The notes below the pieces were generated by a model. It made no database searches and had not been told where the DNA came from. It worked only from the letters and a program-made list of their open reading frames with translations. Both the position numbers and the translations under genes were made by a program. This document shows positions 3,011-9,426 of a DNA stretch of 64,000 bases, one piece after another (the first letter of the stretch is position 1; every line of letters starts with the position of its first letter). Source of the DNA: a virus; the IMG/VR virus record IMGVR_UViG_3300037247_000810, positions 39,460-103,459 of that record, one strand, 5' to 3'.

Positions 3011-3240
3011 GATATGTGACGGGTGACTTGGGGGCGGCCGGTGTGGGCAACTCAGACCCGCAAGTCTTCGATTCCTCTCAGACCTTGGCACTTGCTTCCG
3101 GTCTGGATTATTTCAACGCCGCCCGTCCGACGTTAGCCCACGGGATCACACACCTGACCCGTGGGGAAACGCAGTGGCCCGCGCGGGTGCTACCACTGTC
3201 CACGTCTTCGGGCAAGCCCTACTGGTGAACTTACGCAGGC
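3011..3240 (-). ncRNA. unassigned structured RNA (~220 nt) at the 3' end of the operon
   Basis: helices GCCCG/CGGGC, GACGT/ACGTC, CCCACGGG/CCCGTGGG, CAGACC/GGTCTG, GCAAGT/ACTTGC; no credible ORF. Confidence 0.5.
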
Positions 3241-3286
3241 CGGTGCCGGTGGAGGGAGTCGAACCCTCTTCTTACCCTTGACCGGC
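3241..3286 (-). ncRNA. anticodon-less mini-tRNA A (acceptor + T arm)
   Basis: GCCGGT..ACCGGC stem, GAGGG-TTCGACT-CCCTC T arm, short linker, ends ACCG. Confidence 0.7.
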
Positions 3287-3361
3287 TGGAGCCATCGGAG
3301 GGAATCGAACCCTCTCCTGCGGTTTACGAAACCGCTGCACAGCCACTTGTGCTTCGATGGC
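3287..3361 (-). tRNA. tRNA-Thr(CGT)
   Basis: cloverleaf, loop TTCGTAA, encoded CCA. Confidence 0.93.
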
Positions 3362-3447
3362 TGGTAGCCTCGGCGAGAGTCGAACTCGCACGCCGTTTCC
3401 GGCCGGGGCTTCTAAGACCCCTACGTCTACCATTCCGTCACGAGGCT
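3362..3447 (-). tRNA. tRNA-Leu(TAG)
   Basis: loop CTTAGAA, long variable arm; A1 shared with the terminal A of the upstream tRNA. Confidence 0.9.
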
Positions 3448-3522
3448 GGTACACCTGGTAGGAGTCGAACCTACAATCTCTCGGATGTGAACCGAGCGCC
3501 TTAGCCTTTGGGCCACAGGTGC
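3447..3522 (-). tRNA. tRNA-Val(CAC)
   Basis: loop TTCACAT, CCA. Confidence 0.88.
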
Positions 3523-3597
3523 TGGTGCTTCGGGACGGATTTGAACCGCCGACGCCGCGCTCTTCAGGCGCGCGCTCTACCCCTGAGCTACCGAAGC
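3523..3597 (-). tRNA. tRNA-Phe(GAA)
   Basis: loop CTGAAGA, CCA. Confidence 0.95.
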
Positions 3598-3598
3598 G

Positions 3599-3675
<77 letters not shown>

Positions 3676-3750
3676 TGGAGCGGAAGAAGGGACTCGAACC
3701 CTCGACATTCTCGTTGGCAACGAGACATTCTACCACTGAATTACTTCCGC
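3676..3750 (-). tRNA. tRNA-Gly(GCC)
   Basis: loop TTGCCAA, U73, CCA. Confidence 0.95.
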
Positions 3751-3837
3751 TGGTGTCACCGGCGAGAGTCGAACTCGCACCCCCTTGCGGGGACAAGGCT
3801 CTCAACCTTGCATGTCTACCTGTTCCATCACGGTGAC
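3751..3837 (-). tRNA. tRNA-Leu(GAG)
   Basis: loop TTGAGAG, long variable arm. Confidence 0.93.
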
Positions 3838-3913
3838 TGGTGAACTCGGTAGGAATCGAACCTACGACATCCGACGTATCAGATCGGCGCTCTAACCCCT
3901 GAGCTACGAGTCC
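3838..3913 (-). tRNA. tRNA-Ile(GAT)
   Basis: loop CTGATAC, CCA. Confidence 0.94.
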
Positions 3914-3989
3914 TGGTGACAGCGGGTGGACTTGAACCACCGGCCTTCGCCTTATGAGGGCGCTGCTCTACCAACTGAGCTACGCTGCC
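3914..3989 (-). tRNA. tRNA-Met(CAT), elongator-like (Ile2 not excluded)
   Basis: loop CTCATAA, G1-C72 paired. Confidence 0.88.
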
Positions 3990-4067
3990 TGGTAGCCCCA
4001 GCAGGATTCGAACCTGCGACGTTCCGCTTAAGAGGCGGCTGCTCTGGCCGGACTGAGCTATGGGGCC
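3990..4067 (-). tRNA. tRNA-Lys(CTT)
   Basis: loop CTCTTAA, CCA. Confidence 0.93.
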
Positions 4068-4153
4068 TGGTGCGCAAGGAGGGAATCGAACCCTCAAACC
4101 CTAGTGGGCACACGGTTCTGAGCCGTGCGTGTTTACCGTTTCACCACTCGCGC
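4068..4153 (-). tRNA. tRNA-Leu(CAG)
   Basis: loop CTCAGAA, long variable arm. Confidence 0.93.
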
Positions 4154-4241
4154 TGGTGGGGCAGGTAGGACTCGAACCTACGGAGACCGTTAAGGCCAGC
4201 AGGGTTACAGCCTGCCGCAATTGCCGCTATGCGACTACCCC
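4154..4241 (-). tRNA. tRNA-Tyr(GTA)
   Basis: loop CTGTAAC, long variable arm. Confidence 0.94.
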
Positions 4242-4243
4242 TT

Positions 4244-4317
4244 TGGAGACCCCGGCCGGATTCGAACCGACGATAACCGGGTTGCAGCCGGTTGCCTTAC
4301 CACTTGGCCACGGGGTC
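4244..4317 (-). tRNA. tRNA-Cys(GCA)
   Basis: loop CTGCAAC, U73. Confidence 0.94.
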
Positions 4318-4390
4318 TGGCACACCTGGTAGGAGTCGAACCTACTCTCACGGGTTTGGAGTCCGGTCGGCGCATCCCGCGCTCAGGTGC
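4318..4390 (-). tRNA. tRNA-Trp(CCA), atypical D arm
   Basis: loop CTCCAAA, G73; D arm GCGC-GGGAT-GCGC. Confidence 0.87.
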
Positions 4391-4465
4391 TGGCTGTCGG
4401 ACTAGGATTCGAACCTAGAACTTCCTGATTCAGAGTCAGGCGTCATACCGTTAGACCATCCGACA
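4391..4465 (-). tRNA. tRNA-Gln(CTG)
   Basis: loop CTCTGAA, U1-A72. Confidence 0.94.
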
Positions 4466-4539
4466 TGGATGCGGGAGCAGGAATCGAACCTGCATTCACG
4501 GGTTCAAAGTCCGACGTCCGACCTTTAGACGATCCCGCA
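4466..4539 (-). tRNA. tRNA-Gln(TTG)
   Basis: loop CTTTGAA, U1-A72. Confidence 0.92.
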
Positions 4540-4626
4540 TGGTGCGCCGGGAGGGAGTCGAACCCTCATGCCCCTGGAAGCACACGGGTTTGAGCCGTGC
4601 GTGTCTACCAATTTCACCACCGACGC
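4540..4626 (-). tRNA. tRNA-Leu(CAA)
   Basis: loop CTCAAAC, long variable arm. Confidence 0.93.
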
Positions 4627-4704
4627 TGGTGGGCCAGGTGGGAGTCGAACCCACAAGAGACACGGGGTTTAAGCCCGCCGCATATACCATTCTGCTACTG
4701 GCCT
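4627..4704 (-). tRNA. tRNA-Leu(TAA), short variable loop
   Basis: loop CTTAAAC; 7-nt variable region; A1:C72 mismatch. Confidence 0.85.
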
Positions 4705-4780
4705 TGGCACCAGAGGTAGGACTCGAACCTACAACCAACCGCTTAACAGGCGGCCGCGCTACCTATTGCGCCACTCTGGT
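4705..4780 (-). tRNA. tRNA-Asn(GTT)
   Basis: loop CTGTTAA, G73. Confidence 0.93.
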
Positions 4781-4849
4781 TGGAGCCAGGGGCGGGATTC
4801 GAACCCGCGTCTACAGACTTACAAGGCCCTAGACAACCTGTTACCTGGC
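4781..4849 (-). tRNA. tRNA-Thr(TGT), D-arm-less, 69 nt
   Basis: GCC..GGC acceptor, intact T arm and CCA, loop CTTGTAA, extended anticodon helix GTCTA/TAGAC. Confidence 0.7.
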
Positions 4850-4939
4850 TGGCGAAGCGAGCAGGATTCGAACCTGCGAGACCTTACGGCCCACCGCGTT
4901 AGCAGCGCGGCGCATTCAACCTGACTCTGCCACCGCTTC
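4850..4939 (-). tRNA. tRNA-Ser(GCT)
   Basis: loop CTGCTAA, long variable arm, G73. Confidence 0.93.
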
Positions 4940-4951
4940 TGGCACCGCTTC

Positions 4952-5027
4952 TGGCACCCTCGGCAGGAGTTGAACCCGCGACATCCTGGTTCGAAGCCAG
5001 GCACTCTGTCCACTGAGCTACGAGGGC
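4952..5027 (-). tRNA. tRNA-Arg(TCG)
   Basis: loop CTTCGAA, A20. Confidence 0.92.
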
Positions 5028-5105
5028 TGGTATCCGTGAGAGGGCTCGAACCTCCGGCCTCAGCCTTCGCAGGGCTGCGCTCTTATCCAACTGAGCTACA
5101 CGGAC
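5028..5105 (-). tRNA. tRNA-Arg(GCG)
   Basis: loop CTGCGAA, A20. Confidence 0.92.
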
Positions 5106-5192
5106 TGGCGGAAGGTGAGGGATTCGAACCCCCAAGGCCCATCACGCCCAACCGCTTTCAAGGCGGTGTACCACACCAATGGCAGACCTTCC
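5106..5192 (-). tRNA. tRNA-Ser(TGA) with selC-like D arm
   Basis: loop CTTGAAA, 7-bp acceptor GGAAGGT, 6-bp D stem with 4-nt loop. Confidence 0.85.
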
Positions 5193-5280
5193 TGGAGGAG
5201 ACGGTGGGATTCGAACCCACGAGACCTTGCAGCCCACTCGCTTTCGAGGCGAGCGCTTTCATCCACTCAGCCACATCTCC
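5193..5280 (-). tRNA. tRNA-Ser(CGA)
   Basis: loop CTCGAAA, long variable arm. Confidence 0.93.
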
Positions 5281-5368
5281 TGGCGGACGCTGTAGGATTC
5301 GAACCTACGGTGCCTTGCGACACACACGCTTTCCAGACGTGCCCGTTAAACCACTCCGGCAAGCATCC
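5281..5368 (-). tRNA. tRNA-Ser(GGA)
   Basis: loop CTGGAAA, long variable arm. Confidence 0.93.
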
Positions 5369-5453
5369 GTGTGCGGCGGCCTGCATCACAGTGTGCCTAC
5401 TAACATATAGGGTGGAGCCCAATGTTTCGGCACACGCCGCCGCCATCCACATT
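5369..5453 (-). ncRNA. unassigned ~85-nt hairpin RNA with loop-E-like motif
   Basis: GCGGCGGC/GCCGCCGC, GTGTGCC/GGCACAC, GAA/AGTA internal loop, AACAT/ATGTT. Confidence 0.55.
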
Positions 5454-5501
5454 CTGTGTCGGCTGCGGGAATCGAACCCACCTAACACCAGTTTAGCCGA
5501 C
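5454..5501 (-). ncRNA. anticodon-less mini-tRNA B
   Basis: 7-bp GTCGGCT/AGCCGAC, T arm GTGGG-TTCGATT-CCCGC, 13-nt linker containing TGG. Confidence 0.72.
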
Positions 5502-5578
5502 TGGCGACCCCTACGGGATTTGAACCCGTGACCTCCGCCTTGACAGGGCGGCGAGCACAACCACTGCTCCAAGGGGCC
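5502..5578 (-). tRNA. tRNA-Asp(GTC)
   Basis: loop CTGTCAA, G73. Confidence 0.95.
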
Positions 5579-5663
5579 TCGTTGCTAGCGCAGGTGCCCT
5601 TGGCCTTGGCTCCCCGACCGACCCGCTAGCTAGTCGACCGGATCAACGCTGTACCGAAGGGCT
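5579..5663 (-). ncRNA. unassigned ~85-nt structured, possibly pseudoknotted RNA
   Basis: GCCCTT/AAGGGC followed by ACC, GCTAGCG/CGCTAGC, CGTTG/CAACG. Confidence 0.45.
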
Positions 5664-5739
5664 TGGTGGCGGAGGCAGGATTCGAACCGACGTTCTCTTG
5701 CTTATGAGGCAAGCGAGATGACCACTTCTCCACTCCGCT
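5664..5739 (-). tRNA. tRNA-Met(CAT), initiator-like
   Basis: loop CTCATAA, 1:72 mismatch, A11-U24; lacks the 3 GC anticodon-stem pairs. Confidence 0.82.
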
Positions 5740-5814
5740 TGGCGGCCCATCAGGGAATCGAACCCTGCTCTGATGCTTGAGGGGCATCTATCCTATCCGA
5801 TAGACGAATGGGCC
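5740..5814 (-). tRNA. tRNA-Glu(CTC)
   Basis: loop CCCTCAA, 4-nt variable loop. Confidence 0.92.
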
Positions 5815-5890
5815 TGGTCGGGACGGCAGGATTCTAACCTGCGATTCCGTGCTCCCAAAGCACGTGTGTTGAACACTACACTACGCCCCG
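5815..5890 (-). tRNA. tRNA-Pro(TGG)
   Basis: loop TTTGGGA, C1-G72; T loop TTAGAAT. Confidence 0.9.
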
Positions 5891-5967
5891 TGGTCGGAGT
5901 TGCAAGACTCGAACTTGCGGCCCCCGCGTCCCGAACGCGGTGCTCTTCCTGGCTGAGCTAAACTCCG
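5891..5967 (-). tRNA. tRNA-Pro(CGG)
   Basis: loop TTCGGGA, C1-G72. Confidence 0.93.
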
Positions 5968-6043
5968 TGGGGTGATCGAGGAGATTTGAACTCCCGCTAA
6001 GAGGGCCACAACCTCTTGTGCTAACCACTACACTACGACCACC
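5968..6043 (-). tRNA. tRNA-His(GTG)
   Basis: loop TTGTGGC, encoded G-1:C73. Confidence 0.94.
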
Positions 6044-6044
6044 T

Positions 6045-6118
6045 TGGAGCGCCTAGCGGGAATCGAACCCGCGAACTCTGCTTGGAAGGCAGATATGTTG
6101 CCCCTACATCACAGGCGC
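6045..6118 (-). tRNA. tRNA-Gly(TCC)
   Basis: loop CTTCCAA, U73. Confidence 0.94.
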
Positions 6119-6193
6119 TGGTACGGGCGGTGGGACTCGAACCCACACCGAACGGTTTAAAAGACCGCTGCTCTGCCTTCGAGCTACACCCGC
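6119..6193 (-). tRNA. tRNA-Lys(TTT)
   Basis: loop CTTTTAA. Confidence 0.92.
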
Positions 6194-6269
6194 TGGTAGC
6201 GTCGACGGGATTCGAACCCGCTCCGTCCGGTTTGAAAGACCGGCGACCTATCCTGTAGTCGACGACGCT
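6194..6269 (-). tRNA. tRNA-Glu(TTC)
   Basis: loop CTTTCAA. Confidence 0.92.
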
Positions 6270-6345
6270 TGGAGCCTTCGGCGAGATTCGAACTCGCTGC
6301 CTCGTTCTTACCAAGAACGCGCTCTACCAATTGAGCTACGAAGGC
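6270..6345 (-). tRNA. tRNA-Thr(GGT)
   Basis: loop TTGGTAA. Confidence 0.94.
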
Positions 6346-6353
6346 TTGTTATC

Positions 6354-6683
6354 GAGCAATCGGGTCGTAAGCCGCTTTCTGTTTCTCTGCCTACATCTCT
6401 CTAGCTGTCACGCGGTCGCTGCCAAACTACCCGCCGCGCCTCCGGCCCCCTAACGCAATCCGTCTTTTCACACGACCTCCGTGTCTCCGGGTCTCGGCAG
6501 GCTCGGTGGCCCGCTACCCGTAGTCGCTGTTCGTGACATCTCGCCGGTCTCTTGCCCGACGGCCCGCCTTATTAGGGACGGGTAGGTTGTTTGGCGGCCG
6601 AGCGGACTTTCCTCAAGGGCCTCGTGGTGCAAACGCCTCGCGGCTCCCACCAGACGATCCTGCGTAGGCACGTCCGATTGCTC
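6354..6683 (-). ncRNA. rnpB: RNase P RNA (divergent, reduced)
   Basis: CR-I GAGGAAAGTCCGCT and CR-V ACAGAAAGCGGCTTA form P4 with a bulged U; P1 GAGCAATCGG/CCGATTGCTC; P2 TGCCTAC/GTAGGCA; CR-IV-like CTAGAGAGATG. Confidence 0.92.
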
Positions 6684-6686
6684 TCT

Positions 6687-6737
6687 TGGCAGCCGGTCGC
6701 GGAATCGAACCGCACGGAGGTCAACCAGACCCCGGCT
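6687..6737 (-). ncRNA. anticodon-less mini-tRNA C (acceptor + mini D arm + T arm + GCCA)
   Basis: AGCCGG/CCGGCT, GGTC-TGGTT-GACC, TGCGG-TTCGATT-CCGCG; directly 5' of the RNase P RNA. Confidence 0.72.
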
Positions 6738-6812
6738 TGGTGCCCTGAGCGGGAATCGAACCCGCATCTGCCGCTTAGGAGGCGGCTGCGCTATCCATTA
6801 CGCCATCAGGGT
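6738..6812 (-). tRNA. tRNA-Arg(CCT)
   Basis: loop CTCCTAA, A20. Confidence 0.92.
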
Positions 6813-6887
6813 TCAATAGGCATCCGTGCCGATGGCCTTCCTGGCCCCAATACCACGGCCCGCCTGAGTTAAGGCACACGGGCCGGA
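6813..6887 (-). ncRNA. unassigned ~75-nt structured RNA
   Basis: CGGCCCG/CGGGCCG, CCT/AGG, possible pseudoknot GTGCC/GGCAC. Confidence 0.4.
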
Positions 6888-6936
6888 CGGTCGACTGCGC
6901 GGGGATTTGACCCCATAGCGCCAAGCGCCGCAGCCG
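6888..6936 (-). ncRNA. anticodon-less mini-tRNA D
   Basis: CGGCTGCG/CGCAGTCG, GCG-CTTGG-CGC, GGGG-TCAAAT-CCCC, ends ACCG. Confidence 0.62.
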
Positions 6937-6937
6937 T

Positions 6938-7007
6938 TGGCACCCTCGGTGGGAGTCGAACCCACGTTTGGCCGCTTAGAAGGCGGCGCATCGTCCCCGA
7001 CGAGGGC
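6938..7007 (-). tRNA. tRNA-Arg(TCT), truncated D arm, 70 nt
   Basis: loop CTTCTAA; only 13 nt between acceptor and anticodon stems. Confidence 0.8.
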
Positions 7008-7083
7008 TGGTGAGCGATGAGGGAGTCGAACCCCCGGCACCCTGGATGTAAGCCAGGTGCTCTGGCCTCTGAGCTAATCGCCC
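7008..7083 (-). tRNA. tRNA-Val(TAC)
   Basis: loop CTTACAT. Confidence 0.94.
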
Positions 7084-7158
7084 TGGTGGAGATGACAGGA
7101 TTCGAACCTGCGACTTTCAGTCTGCCAGACTGACACTCTCCCGCTGAGTTACATCCCC
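7084..7158 (-). tRNA. tRNA-Ala(GGC)
   Basis: loop CTGGCAG, G3:U70. Confidence 0.95.
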
Positions 7159-7234
7159 TGGTGGAGCACGCGGGACTCGAACCCGCAACCTCCTGCGTGC
7201 AAGGCAGGCGCACTCCCAATTGTGCTAGCACCCC
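7159..7234 (-). tRNA. tRNA-Ala(TGC)
   Basis: loop CTTGCAC, G3:U70. Confidence 0.95.
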
Positions 7235-7310
7235 TGGTGGAGACGACAGGACTCGAACCTGCTACCTCGTCGTTGCGAACGACGCACTCTCCCTGCTGAG
7301 CTACGCCCCC
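7235..7310 (-). tRNA. tRNA-Ala(CGC)
   Basis: loop TTCGCAA, G3:U70; first tRNA of the operon. Confidence 0.95.
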
Positions 7311-7320
7311 TAGTCTATTC

Positions 7321-7353
7321 TAGCAAAGAACGGGCCGCCTCTATGGGCGGTCG
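7321..7353 (-). promoter_or_regulatory. rrn-type boxB hairpin plus boxA-like antitermination site
   Basis: CCGCC-CATAGA-GGCGG hairpin then GTTCTTTG, between promoter and first tRNA. Confidence 0.55.
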
Positions 7354-7359
7354 ATCCTC

Positions 7360-7388
7360 AATATACCGGATCGCGGAATACTTGTCAA
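7360..7388 (-). promoter_or_regulatory. near-consensus sigma70 promoter of the tRNA operon
   Basis: TTGACA-N17-TATATT with AT-rich upstream element. Confidence 0.85.
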
Positions 7389-7530
7389 GGGCAAAACGAA
7401 CTTTCTTCGAAAATATTTCAGGAGCCGTATCCGCATGTGACGGCGTAGAGACACCATGACCGACCATTCGGCTCGATCTGAAGACTCTGGCGGTGACATC
7501 GTGGACAGTACACAAGAAGTCCTAGCATCA

Positions 7531-7770
7531 TTACCTCCTCACCCGGCCCTCGGCGACGGCTACCGTAAGAATCTCGACTACCTGTTCCAAGTTGTCTAAC
7601 ACCCTCTGAAATGGGATACCGCGCCTAGTCAGATCGACGAGTTGGAACTTGAGCGGGCCAGGGCCATAGGCTTCCAGTAGCGCGCAGATGCGGGGCAACT
7701 CGGCCCCGAACTCGCGCTCGCTAATGCAACCGTCCCGGATGATCTCGAAGGCCCAGACCTCAAGGTTCAT
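7531..7770 (-). CDS. hypothetical protein
   Basis: ATGA overlap with upstream gene; GGAGG RBS. Confidence 0.65.
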   Translation of the reverse strand: MNLEVWAFEIIRDGCISEREFGAELPRICALLEAYGPGPLKFQLVDLTRRGIPFQRVLDNLEQVVEILTVAVAEGRVRR

Positions 7771-8360
7771 CGCTTGTTCCTCCCCCGCCGTCGAAGTCGT
7801 TTCGGCACCTCGCCCCGGGTCTGGTAATCCCTAATCTCCTGTGGCGTCATCTCCTCGATGTGCTCGTTCAGGAAGAAATTGTAGGACGGCAGCGGCGGCT
7901 CCTCGTCGGCCCCGTACAACGCGGGCCGGAGCACCATCTTGCCCTTGGCCATCACATCCTTACCAGACACGCCCTGCTCTCCCTCGAACTTGCCCTTCTC
8001 GTACCAGAGCACGAATGCTTGGTTCTCCTTGGCCTCTTCCAAGCAGGAGAAGTGACGGCCGCACCAATCGAAGCCGTCCTCCCGCACCTCGCTATGCTGG
8101 CCACCGTGGCCGGGATTGGAGCAGTGCGGCGGGACACATGGGTCAGCGGTCGTGTGCAAGTCGGCCGAGCCATACCAAGAGTAGACGCGGAAGCACGGCC
8201 GATACCAGACCCGCGCCTTCGTTGGATCATGGCGAGGCGGCTTCCGCCCGCCGAAGCGCCGCCAGAGATTGCGGAGGCCGGGGAAGGATGGCTGAAGGAG
8301 ACCCGCAACCGCACGCGGGATCGGCCCGCTGGTCTGCTGCTCCTCTTCTTCGTTAGCCAT
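7767..8360 (-). CDS. hypothetical protein
   Basis: GAGGAG RBS; tiles with neighbours. Confidence 0.65.
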   Translation of the reverse strand: MANEEEEQQTSGPIPRAVAGLLQPSFPGLRNLWRRFGGRKPPRHDPTKARVWYRPCFRVYSWYGSADLHTTADPCVPPHCSNPGHGGQHSEVREDGFDWCGRHFSCLEEAKENQAFVLWYEKGKFEGEQGVSGKDVMAKGKMVLRPALYGADEEPPLPSYNFFLNEHIEEMTPQEIRDYQTRGEVPKRLRRRGRNKR

Positions 8361-8712
8361 CGCACTCCTCACTGCCCGCGAGACATTCCTTGCAGGTCAC
8401 GGCCTCCCTGTAGTTGGCAATGCGGTAGCGCTCCCGTCGCTTGTGCGCGGCGTCGGGCGAGAAATCACAAACAATCTGCCCGGCGCGGCAGTAGTGGACA
8501 TCGGGCTTAGCCATTACGCTTGGCTTTCTCATAGAATTGAATGGCGCGGTGAAATCTAGTTGTCGCCCGGCGGTTCGGCGGGCAGATACCATAGCTGCAA
8601 GTCTTAATGGGTTCGGGGTGCCCCTGGCCCTCGTGCATAGACCACCGCATTGTCCCTAACAGAGCAGCCATAAAATCTGCACTTGACAACACTTCATCGA
8701 TCAGATCGTCCA

Positions 8713-9426
8713 TCATCGCCTTTTCCCCCTCTTTGCTTTGCCCTTCTTGCGTTTCTTCGGCTGAGGGCGCGCGGGCTGCGCCACCACTAACTGGCCGCGT
8801 TTGACGGGCTGGAACTTGTAGGTGCAGAAGTCCAGGCCGTCCACGTCCGTCGGATGCTGGGGATAGGACGCGCACATCTTCGGACGTTGCGCCGTACCGG
8901 AAACACCACACAGCCCATCTTTGGTCAATTGGGTACAGCGGACAGGCACGTAAGCCGCCAGTTGTTGGCCAAACCGCCGGAGCATCGTGATCCCGTGCTG
9001 CTCCAACCAGACCACCCAGGCATCGAAGTCCCATGTGGGCGGCTCGCTCTTCACCTCAACGGGAATAGCCGCCGTCAACAGGCCGCTCGGCAACTGATAC
9101 AGGTAGGCATCATGCTGCGCGAGCCAGTATTCCCAATCCTCGAATCCCGCTTTGCCGCGCGTGACGGGATCGATAGGTAAAATGATCTGCTCGTGGACGA
9201 CTAGGGCGAAGTCTTCATCCGCCAACCCTTCGACCTGAATCGGTACGACGAATGCGGTGCAACAGGCCCCGCAGCCCGCCGTGCAACCGCCCATCCGCAA
9301 ATAGCCAACAAGGTCTTCCAACTCCGCAACGAGGGGCTTGAACAGCTTGATCTCATCGGCCTGGAGCCGCGAGGGATTGAAATGGGCAGGCTTATCAATT
9401 GTCGGATAGCGATCAAGAACCGGCAT
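8713..9426 (-). CDS. YkgJ-family Cys-cluster (Fe-S/Zn) protein
   Basis: CTAGCGACC ... CTQLTKDGLC..RPKMCASYP. Confidence 0.75.
   Translation of the reverse strand: MPVLDRYPTIDKPAHFNPSRLQADEIKLFKPLVAELEDLVGYLRMGGCTAGCGACCTAFVVPIQVEGLADEDFALVVHEQIILPIDPVTRGKAGFEDWEYWLAQHDAYLYQLPSGLLTAAIPVEVKSEPPTWDFDAWVVWLEQHGITMLRRFGQQLAAYVPVRCTQLTKDGLCGVSGTAQRPKMCASYPQHPTDVDGLDFCTYKFQPVKRGQLVVAQPARPQPKKRKKGKAKRGKRR

Follow-up and report, generated by a model that had tools for sequence, protein, structure and literature searches.

Within the tRNA array of an uncultured tailed phage from marine sediment lies a 331-nt element that, judged by its sequence, is a homologue of RNase P RNA. A relative of this RNA is found at the same place in a second phage, and comparison of the two points to a shared fold of bacterial type-A design. 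We consider it probable that the phage uses this RNA, which would derive from the bacterial design, as a working RNase P RNA of its own, likely together with the RnpA protein of the host.

The window that we analysed (64,000 nucleotides) is the final 64 kb of the IMG/VR virus record IMGVR_UViG_3300037247_000810, which comprises 103,459 bp at a CheckV completeness of 82%. This record encodes a portal protein, a tape measure, a baseplate hub, a helicase, a primase, a family-A DNA polymerase, a UvsX-like recombinase, and an endolysin-like protein, and its structural and replication genes therefore identify the source as a tailed phage. Its DNA polymerase shares at most 28% identity with that of any cultured phage.

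An RNase P RNA homologue within a phage tRNA array

The array comprises 40 tRNA genes on the minus strand (3287-7310), all of which (40/40) encode the terminal CCA. ARAGORN's calls define 39 junctions between adjacent tRNAs, and in 31 of them the CCA directly abuts base +1 of the next tRNA with no spacer. A sigma-70-like promoter, predicted only from its match to the consensus, is located 50 nt upstream of the array's first tRNA (Table 1). The genes for tRNA-Arg(cct) (6738-6812) and tRNA-Thr(ggt) are 392 nt apart, and the space between them holds a 51-nt mini-tRNA that directly follows the CCA of tRNA-Arg(cct), then three bases leading up to P1, and then the 331-nt RNase P RNA homologue itself.

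At the gathering thresholds of Rfam, the window yields only tRNAs. The initial annotation, which had proposed a structurally reduced, phage-encoded RNase P RNA at this place, suggested searches with the two bacterial models and the archaeal one, and these gave a graded answer. The bacterial type A model (RF00010) aligns end to end, i.e., over the full model length, with positions 6352-6681 at 26 bits and an E-value of 1.1e-7 (record-wide). This is about a quarter of the gathering cut-off of 100 bits, and the gene therefore escapes standard annotation. The archaeal type A model (RF00373, gathering cut-off 84 bits) produces a local match of 16 bits, limited to the 3' 65 nt, and the bacterial type B model (RF00011) has no match at E-values up to 10. 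The homologue in the second phage (L027, described below) has no RF00010 match in the Rfam model scan and reaches 24.9 bits with RF00373, again only over the 3' 65 nt. The scores below 84 bits and the absence of P16/P17 set the phage RNA apart from the RF00373 family. The loss of a single peripheral element is seen in some true members of RF00010 as well, and a true bacterial rnpB that we examined alongside (L022) lacks P13/P14 yet scores 209 bits.

The assignment is carried by conserved regions which the initial annotation had already seen in part, namely CR-I, CR-V, and a motif from the CR-IV side. CR-I (GAGGAAAGUCC, 6614-6604) is an exact match to the Rfam consensus and leads into P4, while CR-V (ACAGAAAGCGGCUUA, 6382-6368) reads ACAGAA-AGC-GGCUUA, fits the pattern ACAGAA-NNN-GGCUUA, and forms the 3' strand of P4. 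The third motif, CUAGAGAGAUG, resembles J18/2 and agrees with the Rfam consensus CuAGAugAAUG in 8/11 letters. In addition, the P15 loop contains GGGUA, which corresponds to the consensus L15 motif CGGGUa. CR-II and CR-III could not be placed, and the S-domain alone (138 nt) has no match to any Rfam model at E-values up to 10; strings resembling ACAG and GUGAAA do occur in the S-domain but fall within a predicted helix.

Near-identity to a host rnpB gene, i.e., a recent capture, had been named in the initial annotation as something that would speak against a variant ribozyme. What we found instead is a score of 26 bits and a 24-nt S-domain block with no exact match among representative genomes of 185,579 species, and as far as such comparisons can tell this supports the view that the phage did not take up a host rnpB in the recent past.

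Several other parts of the array and its surroundings stood out during this analysis. Gaps of 69-270 nt on the minus strand without tRNA call or Rfam match (6813-6937, 5579-5663, 5369-5501, 4781-4849, 4318-4390, and 3016-3286) may contain other small RNAs or mini-tRNAs. A 12-nt spacer before tRNA-Ser(gct) (4940-4951, minus strand) reads GAAGCGGTGCCA, which is a copy of the first 8 bases of this tRNA followed by GCCA. The tRNA-Arg(tct) gene (6938-7007, minus strand) is just 70 nt long according to ARAGORN, which places the anticodon at position 28, and it may encode a shortened D-arm; it is missed by Rfam at the gathering threshold, and its L027 counterpart scores 35.6 bits. At 5110-5192 (minus strand), Rfam calls a tRNA-Sec (49.1 bits, cut-off 47) whereas ARAGORN calls a tRNA-Ser(tga), and we rejected the former because the anticodon is UGA and not UCA, which makes this a tRNA for serine whose variable arm is long.

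Just upstream of the array, two protein-coding genes are conserved within the phage group and found on the same contigs. One of them (7767-8372, minus strand) encodes a 201-aa protein with a basic tail that has 34 homologues and neither a Pfam nor a PHROG match; its AlphaFold2 model (mean pLDDT 75) finds no fold match in the PDB using Foldseek, and VIA-align gives a best Z of 2.3. The other (8713-9426, minus strand) encodes a Cys-rich protein of 237 aa with 52 homologues and a weak match to PF03692 (CxxCxxCC). The contigs that carry these relatives come from Logan and NCBI and are up to 105 kb long.

A relative in a second phage and the shared fold

We found only one full-length homologue of the phage RNA, which is a 328-nt element at 7321-7648 of IMGVR_UViG_3300017530_000053 (L027), a phage contig from a different sample. 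It was located via an alignment of the 52 homologues of the 237-aa protein, the gene for which lies two genes upstream of the array. The two RNAs are 76% identical (252/332 columns alike) and share the same gene order, with tRNA-Arg(cct), a mini-tRNA (49 nt at 7268-7316 in L027), the RNA, and tRNA-Thr(ggt).

Mini-tRNAs of 47-51 nt composed of an acceptor stem, a small hairpin, a T-arm, and NCCA flank the non-tRNA parts of these arrays. In L027, the RNase P RNA is followed by a second one (ca. 7661-7706, plus strand) and then by an inserted HNH endonuclease-like ORF (7739-8250, plus strand, read by eye), which precedes tRNA-Thr and is absent from the window. A second HNH gene (5539-5991; phrog_826, E 6e-48) is found upstream of the L027 array. 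ARAGORN also called a permuted tmRNA at 6900-7467 of L027. We rejected this call since it runs across tRNAs and the P RNA, has no equivalent in the window, and is not backed by any Rfam tmRNA match in L027.

Variants of parts of 6452-6683 also occur on Logan contigs that stem from three other sequencing studies (marine sediment, cold seep, and sediment). One of these contigs, 519 nt long, leads from tRNA-Thr into the S-domain through 100 letters that cannot be aligned and that stand in for the 102-nt 3' part. A base swap in P12 of the Logan contigs is identical to the one in L027 and is thus not independent evidence. In IMG/VR, the 24-nt S-domain block occurs on L027's contig alone, and all 18 matches to the exact CR-V 16-mer are due to chance. 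Two gapped-pattern searches returned L027's contig plus chance matches and no new homologue. A blastn search against phage and plasmid records gave no match, and a search for the neighbour proteins in species genomes found none. Among related contigs, L020, which was reached through the DNA polymerase, is a fragment without tRNA array, and L028, a relative with a 41%-identical neighbour protein, has neither tRNAs nor an RNase P-like RNA.

To obtain the structure, we combined stems that pair at the same columns in both RNAs with RNAalifold and assembled them colinear with type A (Table 1). The two RNAs have 87 pairs in common, of which 16 differ in both bases (double changes), 5 differ in a single base, and none is broken. 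All substitutions in paired columns (37/37) thus preserve pairing between the window and L027, a proportion that is inflated because the structure was built from these same two sequences, whereas the 16 double changes could not be produced in this way. When partners were slid by 1-3 columns as a control, 0-1 double changes and 35-40% pairing were seen. RNAalifold independently recovered P3, P4, P5, P8, P9, P12, and P15. At least one double-changed pair is present in 10 of the 13 named helices, while P9, P10/11, and the P13-like hairpin are invariant and covariation says nothing on them. This covariation analysis, which the initial annotation had proposed, supports the interpretation that the fold is under selection, and the central claim of a phage-borne RNase P RNA homologue with a selected fold stands.

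The same comparison bears on whether the element might be nothing but a functionless, decaying remnant of a host-derived rnpB gene, which would fit its low Rfam score and the loss of several peripheral helices. We regard this as extremely improbable given that every substitution in paired columns keeps the pairing, that long invariant blocks extend through loops and junctions, that the position is kept in two diverged phages, and that the 24-nt block tested has no near-identical sequence in species genomes.

Table 1. The RNase P RNA homologue, its helices and motifs, and flanking features (window positions; strands of a helix are separated by a slash; changes refer to the comparison with L027)
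Feature	Position	Strand	Description
RNase P RNA homologue, whole	6353-6683	minus	331 nt, first to last base of P1
P1	6674-6683 / 6354-6363	minus	10 bp; 2 double changes among 6 pairs scored in register
P2	6663-6669 / 6389-6395	minus	7 bp; 1 double and 1 one-sided change
P3 stem-loop	6614-6662	minus	15 pairs; 1 double and 2 one-sided changes; GNRA tetraloop GCGA (GCAA in L027)
CR-I and P4 5' strand, AAG(U)CCGCU	6601-6614	minus	P4 is AAG(U)CCGCU/AGCGGCUU; 8 pairs, 2 double changes
P5	6596-6600 / 6443-6447	minus	CGGCC/GGCCG (CGUCG/CGGCG in L027); 5 bp, 2 double changes
P6-type pseudoknot	6589-6595 / 6421-6427 (in P15 loop)	minus	7 bp, 4 double changes
S-domain	6449-6586	minus	138 nt; P7-P8-P9-P10/11-P12 in usual order
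P7	6586-6583 / 6452-6449	minus	CCUA/UAGG; 1 double change
P8	6582-6563	minus	1 double change
P9	6561-6542	minus	invariant
P10/11	6530-6522 / 6477-6470	minus	invariant
P12	6514-6497	minus	1 double change
P13-like mini-hairpin	6490-6479	minus	3 bp; invariant
P15-type hairpin	6439-6434 / 6415-6410	minus	GCGCGG/CCGCGU; 6 bp; 1 double and 2 one-sided changes
J15/2	6396-6409	minus	GACAG, then CUAGAGAGA(UG); J18/2 (CR-IV-side) motif joined without P18; consensus CCuAGAugAAUG
J2/4 and CR-V (ACAGAAAGCGGCUUA)	6368-6388	minus	contains P4 3' strand
Mini-tRNA	6687-6737	minus	51 nt; acceptor stem, small hairpin, T-arm, GCCA (fold)
tRNA-Thr(ggt)	6270-6345	minus	8 nt downstream of P1
Sigma-70-like promoter, TTGACA-17-TATATT	7360-7388	minus	11/12 letters; predicted, consensus match only

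Helices P1-P4, which had been recognised from the single sequence, all pair and all covary with the homologue. P1 has a third double change, seen by eye, in its misaligned inner part, and the L027 version of this helix has 11 bp with one C.A mismatch. P4 had been described as altered but still paired, and its reading as a sign of selection is borne out by two double changes (G-C to A-U and U-A to C-G) and by the bulged U that both RNAs retain; the pair adjoining this U is G-C in the window and A-U in L027. Where the window has CR-I, L027 reads GGGAAAAAUCC, and this G-to-A change is compensated in P4. P5 comes directly after P4 and is followed by the P6 strand, two bases, P7, and the P8 and P9 hairpins. 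One base separates the 3' strands of P7 and P5, and J5/15 consists of the three bases GAG (UAU in L027). The two phages are identical over a 13-nt run in J15/2, over 30 nt of the S-domain (6493-6464), and over the L8 block (6579-6566). A candidate P10 pairing (AUGUC/GAC..AU) was rejected, as it forms in the window only and is not preserved in L027.

The initial annotation had the S-domain enclosed by two helices, and the comparison supports only one of these. GCCAAAC/GUUUGGC, which corresponds to UCUGGAC/GUCCAGA in L027, is the best-supported helix of the whole RNA with double changes in 4/7 pairs. However, it crosses P5 and P15, which both covary, and we therefore read it as a P6-type pseudoknot. 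Double changes are lacking in the other proposed helix, CUACCCG/CGGGUAG, but present, one each, in P7 and P8, with which it competes. It appears in the single-sequence minimum-energy fold, where it would bury the GGGUA motif, and could possibly form in an alternative conformer.

Similarly, the space available for P15-P17 and the GGU of L15 had been put at about 15 nt. It actually amounts to ca. 38 nt (6443-6405) and holds a covarying 6-bp hairpin with an 18-nt loop made up of CGGGUA (6433-6428), the P6 3' strand (6427-6421), and AGCGA. The GGGUA of this loop may bind the CCA of tRNAs. With a loop of merely 18 nt, P16/P17 are absent, and the P13/P14 pair is absent as well, since the stretch from P12 to the P11 3' strand measures only 19 nt and holds a single 3-bp hairpin. 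That P18 is missing had been seen correctly: the P15 3' strand is joined to CUAGAG by no more than 5 nt. The L18-P8 brace is therefore gone and L8-P4 is left (PMC8457005). The L8 region of the phage RNA (6579-6566) is among the invariant blocks. Calling the RNA structurally reduced is thus apt for P18, P16/P17, and the P13/P14 pair. It is less so for overall size, with 331 nt compared to the usual 340-420 nt of bacterial RNase P RNA (PMC4919922) and an S-domain of 138 nt.

A proposed role in tRNA maturation

We infer the following route from the array to a working ribozyme. The strong sigma-70-type promoter would drive synthesis of one long RNA that holds the ribozyme together with 40 head-to-tail, CCA-ending tRNAs, and RNase P cuts at tRNA-Thr and at the preceding mini-tRNA would free the RNase P RNA. 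Its 3' end would be set by the 5' cleavage of tRNA-Thr, while the mini-tRNA may allow RNase P to part the RNA from tRNA-Arg. More generally, the mini-tRNAs look as if they could serve as processing "punctuation" for RNase P, and such a role agrees with the place of L027's second mini-tRNA, which separates the RNA from the HNH gene. Minihelices composed of acceptor stem and T-arm are a class of model RNase P substrate, and the mini-tRNA has this shape. Model substrates of RNase P have been reviewed (PMC11143913).

Once released, the RNA would fold into a catalytic core of P1-P5, P15 with its GGGUA loop, J18/2, and CR-V next to an S-domain of near full size and divergent sequence. The braces formed by P18 and P16/P17 would be missing, and the 7-bp P6 pseudoknot with the P15 loop would take the place of P16/P17.

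The most likely protein partner would be host RnpA. This protein contacts J18/2 and CR-V of the RNA, and RnpA proteins are interchangeable between bacteria (PMC4919922). No rnpA gene had been recognised in the window by the initial annotation, and we indeed found no PF00825 match in six frames of the whole 103-kb record. Together with the preservation of the RnpA-contact regions J18/2 and CR-V, this makes the host protein a likely partner, though a protein partner could also be encoded in the missing part of the record, which is 82% complete. Paired with RnpA, the RNA would provide extra RNase P capacity for the phage tRNA precursor. Each cut at a junction would yield the 5' end of one tRNA and a finished CCA 3' end, and with ca. 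45 RNase P cuts per array transcript an extra ribozyme could matter once host transcription falls.

Some features of the RNA speak against a working ribozyme, namely the far sub-threshold Rfam score, the unmatched S-domain in which CR-II and CR-III could not be located, the departures of L027 in CR-I and at the P4 pair beside the bulged U, and the position of the GGU. In E. coli M1 RNA, the GGU follows the P6 strand in the loop. The phage RNA has it 5' of the P6 strand, in reverse order, and its role in CCA binding is therefore uncertain.

Such features could also belong to an RNase P look-alike that does not cut and instead acts as a decoy or regulator, soaking up host RnpA or competing for pre-tRNA and thereby tilting tRNA maturation to the phage. 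Scores far below the cut-off for every Rfam RNase P model, the failure of Rfam to recognise the S-domain, and the deviation of L027 from the CR-I consensus would be compatible with this idea, and a non-catalytic, RNase P-like RNA of viral origin has been discussed before (PMC3001073). We nevertheless deem it unlikely because the window copy retains an exact CR-I, CR-V, the bulged U of P4, J18/2, and GGGUA, because the P4 changes of L027 are compensated, and because a decoy directed at the protein only would need neither active-site strands nor a tightly kept S-domain. The setting, a tRNA array that depends on so many RNase P cuts per transcript, argues in the same direction.

A different question is whether a working ribozyme would need host RnpA at all. 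It could act alone or with a phage protein that we did not recognise and be specialised for leaders that consist of the CCA of the previous tRNA. This extends the suggestion of the initial annotation that the ribozyme is perhaps tuned to such substrates. Consistent with this, the L15/P6 module is rewired, J5/15 reads GAG (UAU in L027) where AA is usual, most junctions lack a spacer, and this phage group conserves a basic protein of ca. 200 aa with no known fold, the gene for which immediately precedes the array. However, the RnpA-contact regions J18/2 and CR-V are conserved, and the ca. 200-aa protein is linked to the RNA by its position alone, which makes an RnpA-independent ribozyme rather improbable in our view. 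We give a similarly slim chance to the joint reading of the locus as a self-contained tRNA-maturation module that would combine a ribozyme with rewired L15/P6 for zero-spacer CCA-leader junctions, excision by means of mini-tRNAs, and independence of host RnpA, with the RNA acting alone or with a phage protein such as the 201-aa basic protein.

We therefore favor a functional type-A-derived RNase P RNA that likely uses host RnpA. To our knowledge, RNase P RNA is regarded as a universal cellular housekeeping ribozyme. If the phage RNA is active, phages with large tRNA sets would also import the ribozyme that matures them. An active RNA would moreover represent a natural "minimised" type-A design, with no P18, no P16/P17, and a long P6 formed with the P15 loop, which could serve to probe ways of rebuilding domain bracing and CCA recognition. 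Given that standard Rfam thresholds miss such genes, viral catalogues may under-count them.

Comparison with known RNase P RNAs

Our full-text literature search returned no publication on RNase P RNAs encoded by phages. A study of genomes from metagenomes reported diverged RNase P RNAs in CPR bacteria, and two megaphages gave only tRNAs and tmRNA by Rfam (PMC8172020). The nearest viral precedent is the RNase P-like RNA of orthopoxviruses (camelpox), likewise a virus-encoded look-alike of RNase P RNA (PMC3001073). It differs in belonging to a eukaryotic virus, in its resemblance to the nuclear type, in having been discussed as a possible decoy, and in being encoded outside of any tRNA array.

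Among cellular RNAs, archaeal type A (RF00373) lacks P13/P14 and P18 as the phage RNA does (PMC4919922), and L027 scores slightly better with this model than with RF00010. However, archaeal type A, which has four or five protein partners, retains P16/P17/P6 (PMC1874661). P16/P17 are absent from the phage RNA, and the setting of the latter is bacterial with its sigma-70-like promoter, CCA-encoding tRNAs, and endolysin-like gene.

With bacterial type A (RF00010), as represented by E. coli M1 RNA and the P RNA of Thermotoga maritima, the phage RNA shares the same colinear core of P1-P5, the bulged U in P4, a P6 pseudoknot, P7-P12, and P15, in addition to an exact CR-I, CR-V, the J18/2-like motif, and the GGGUA loop motif. 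Its setting among CCA-encoding tRNAs is as expected for an RNA with GGU in L15 (PMC4919922). Unlike bacterial type A, it resides in a phage tRNA array, falls far short of the 100-bit cut-off with its 26 bits, and has an S-domain that the model does not recognise. It also lacks P18, and with it the L18-P8 brace (PMC8457005), as well as P16/P17, and a 3-bp mini-hairpin replaces P13/P14. Finally, its P6 is a 7-bp helix made with the P15 loop itself, in which the GGU lies 5' of the P6 strand.
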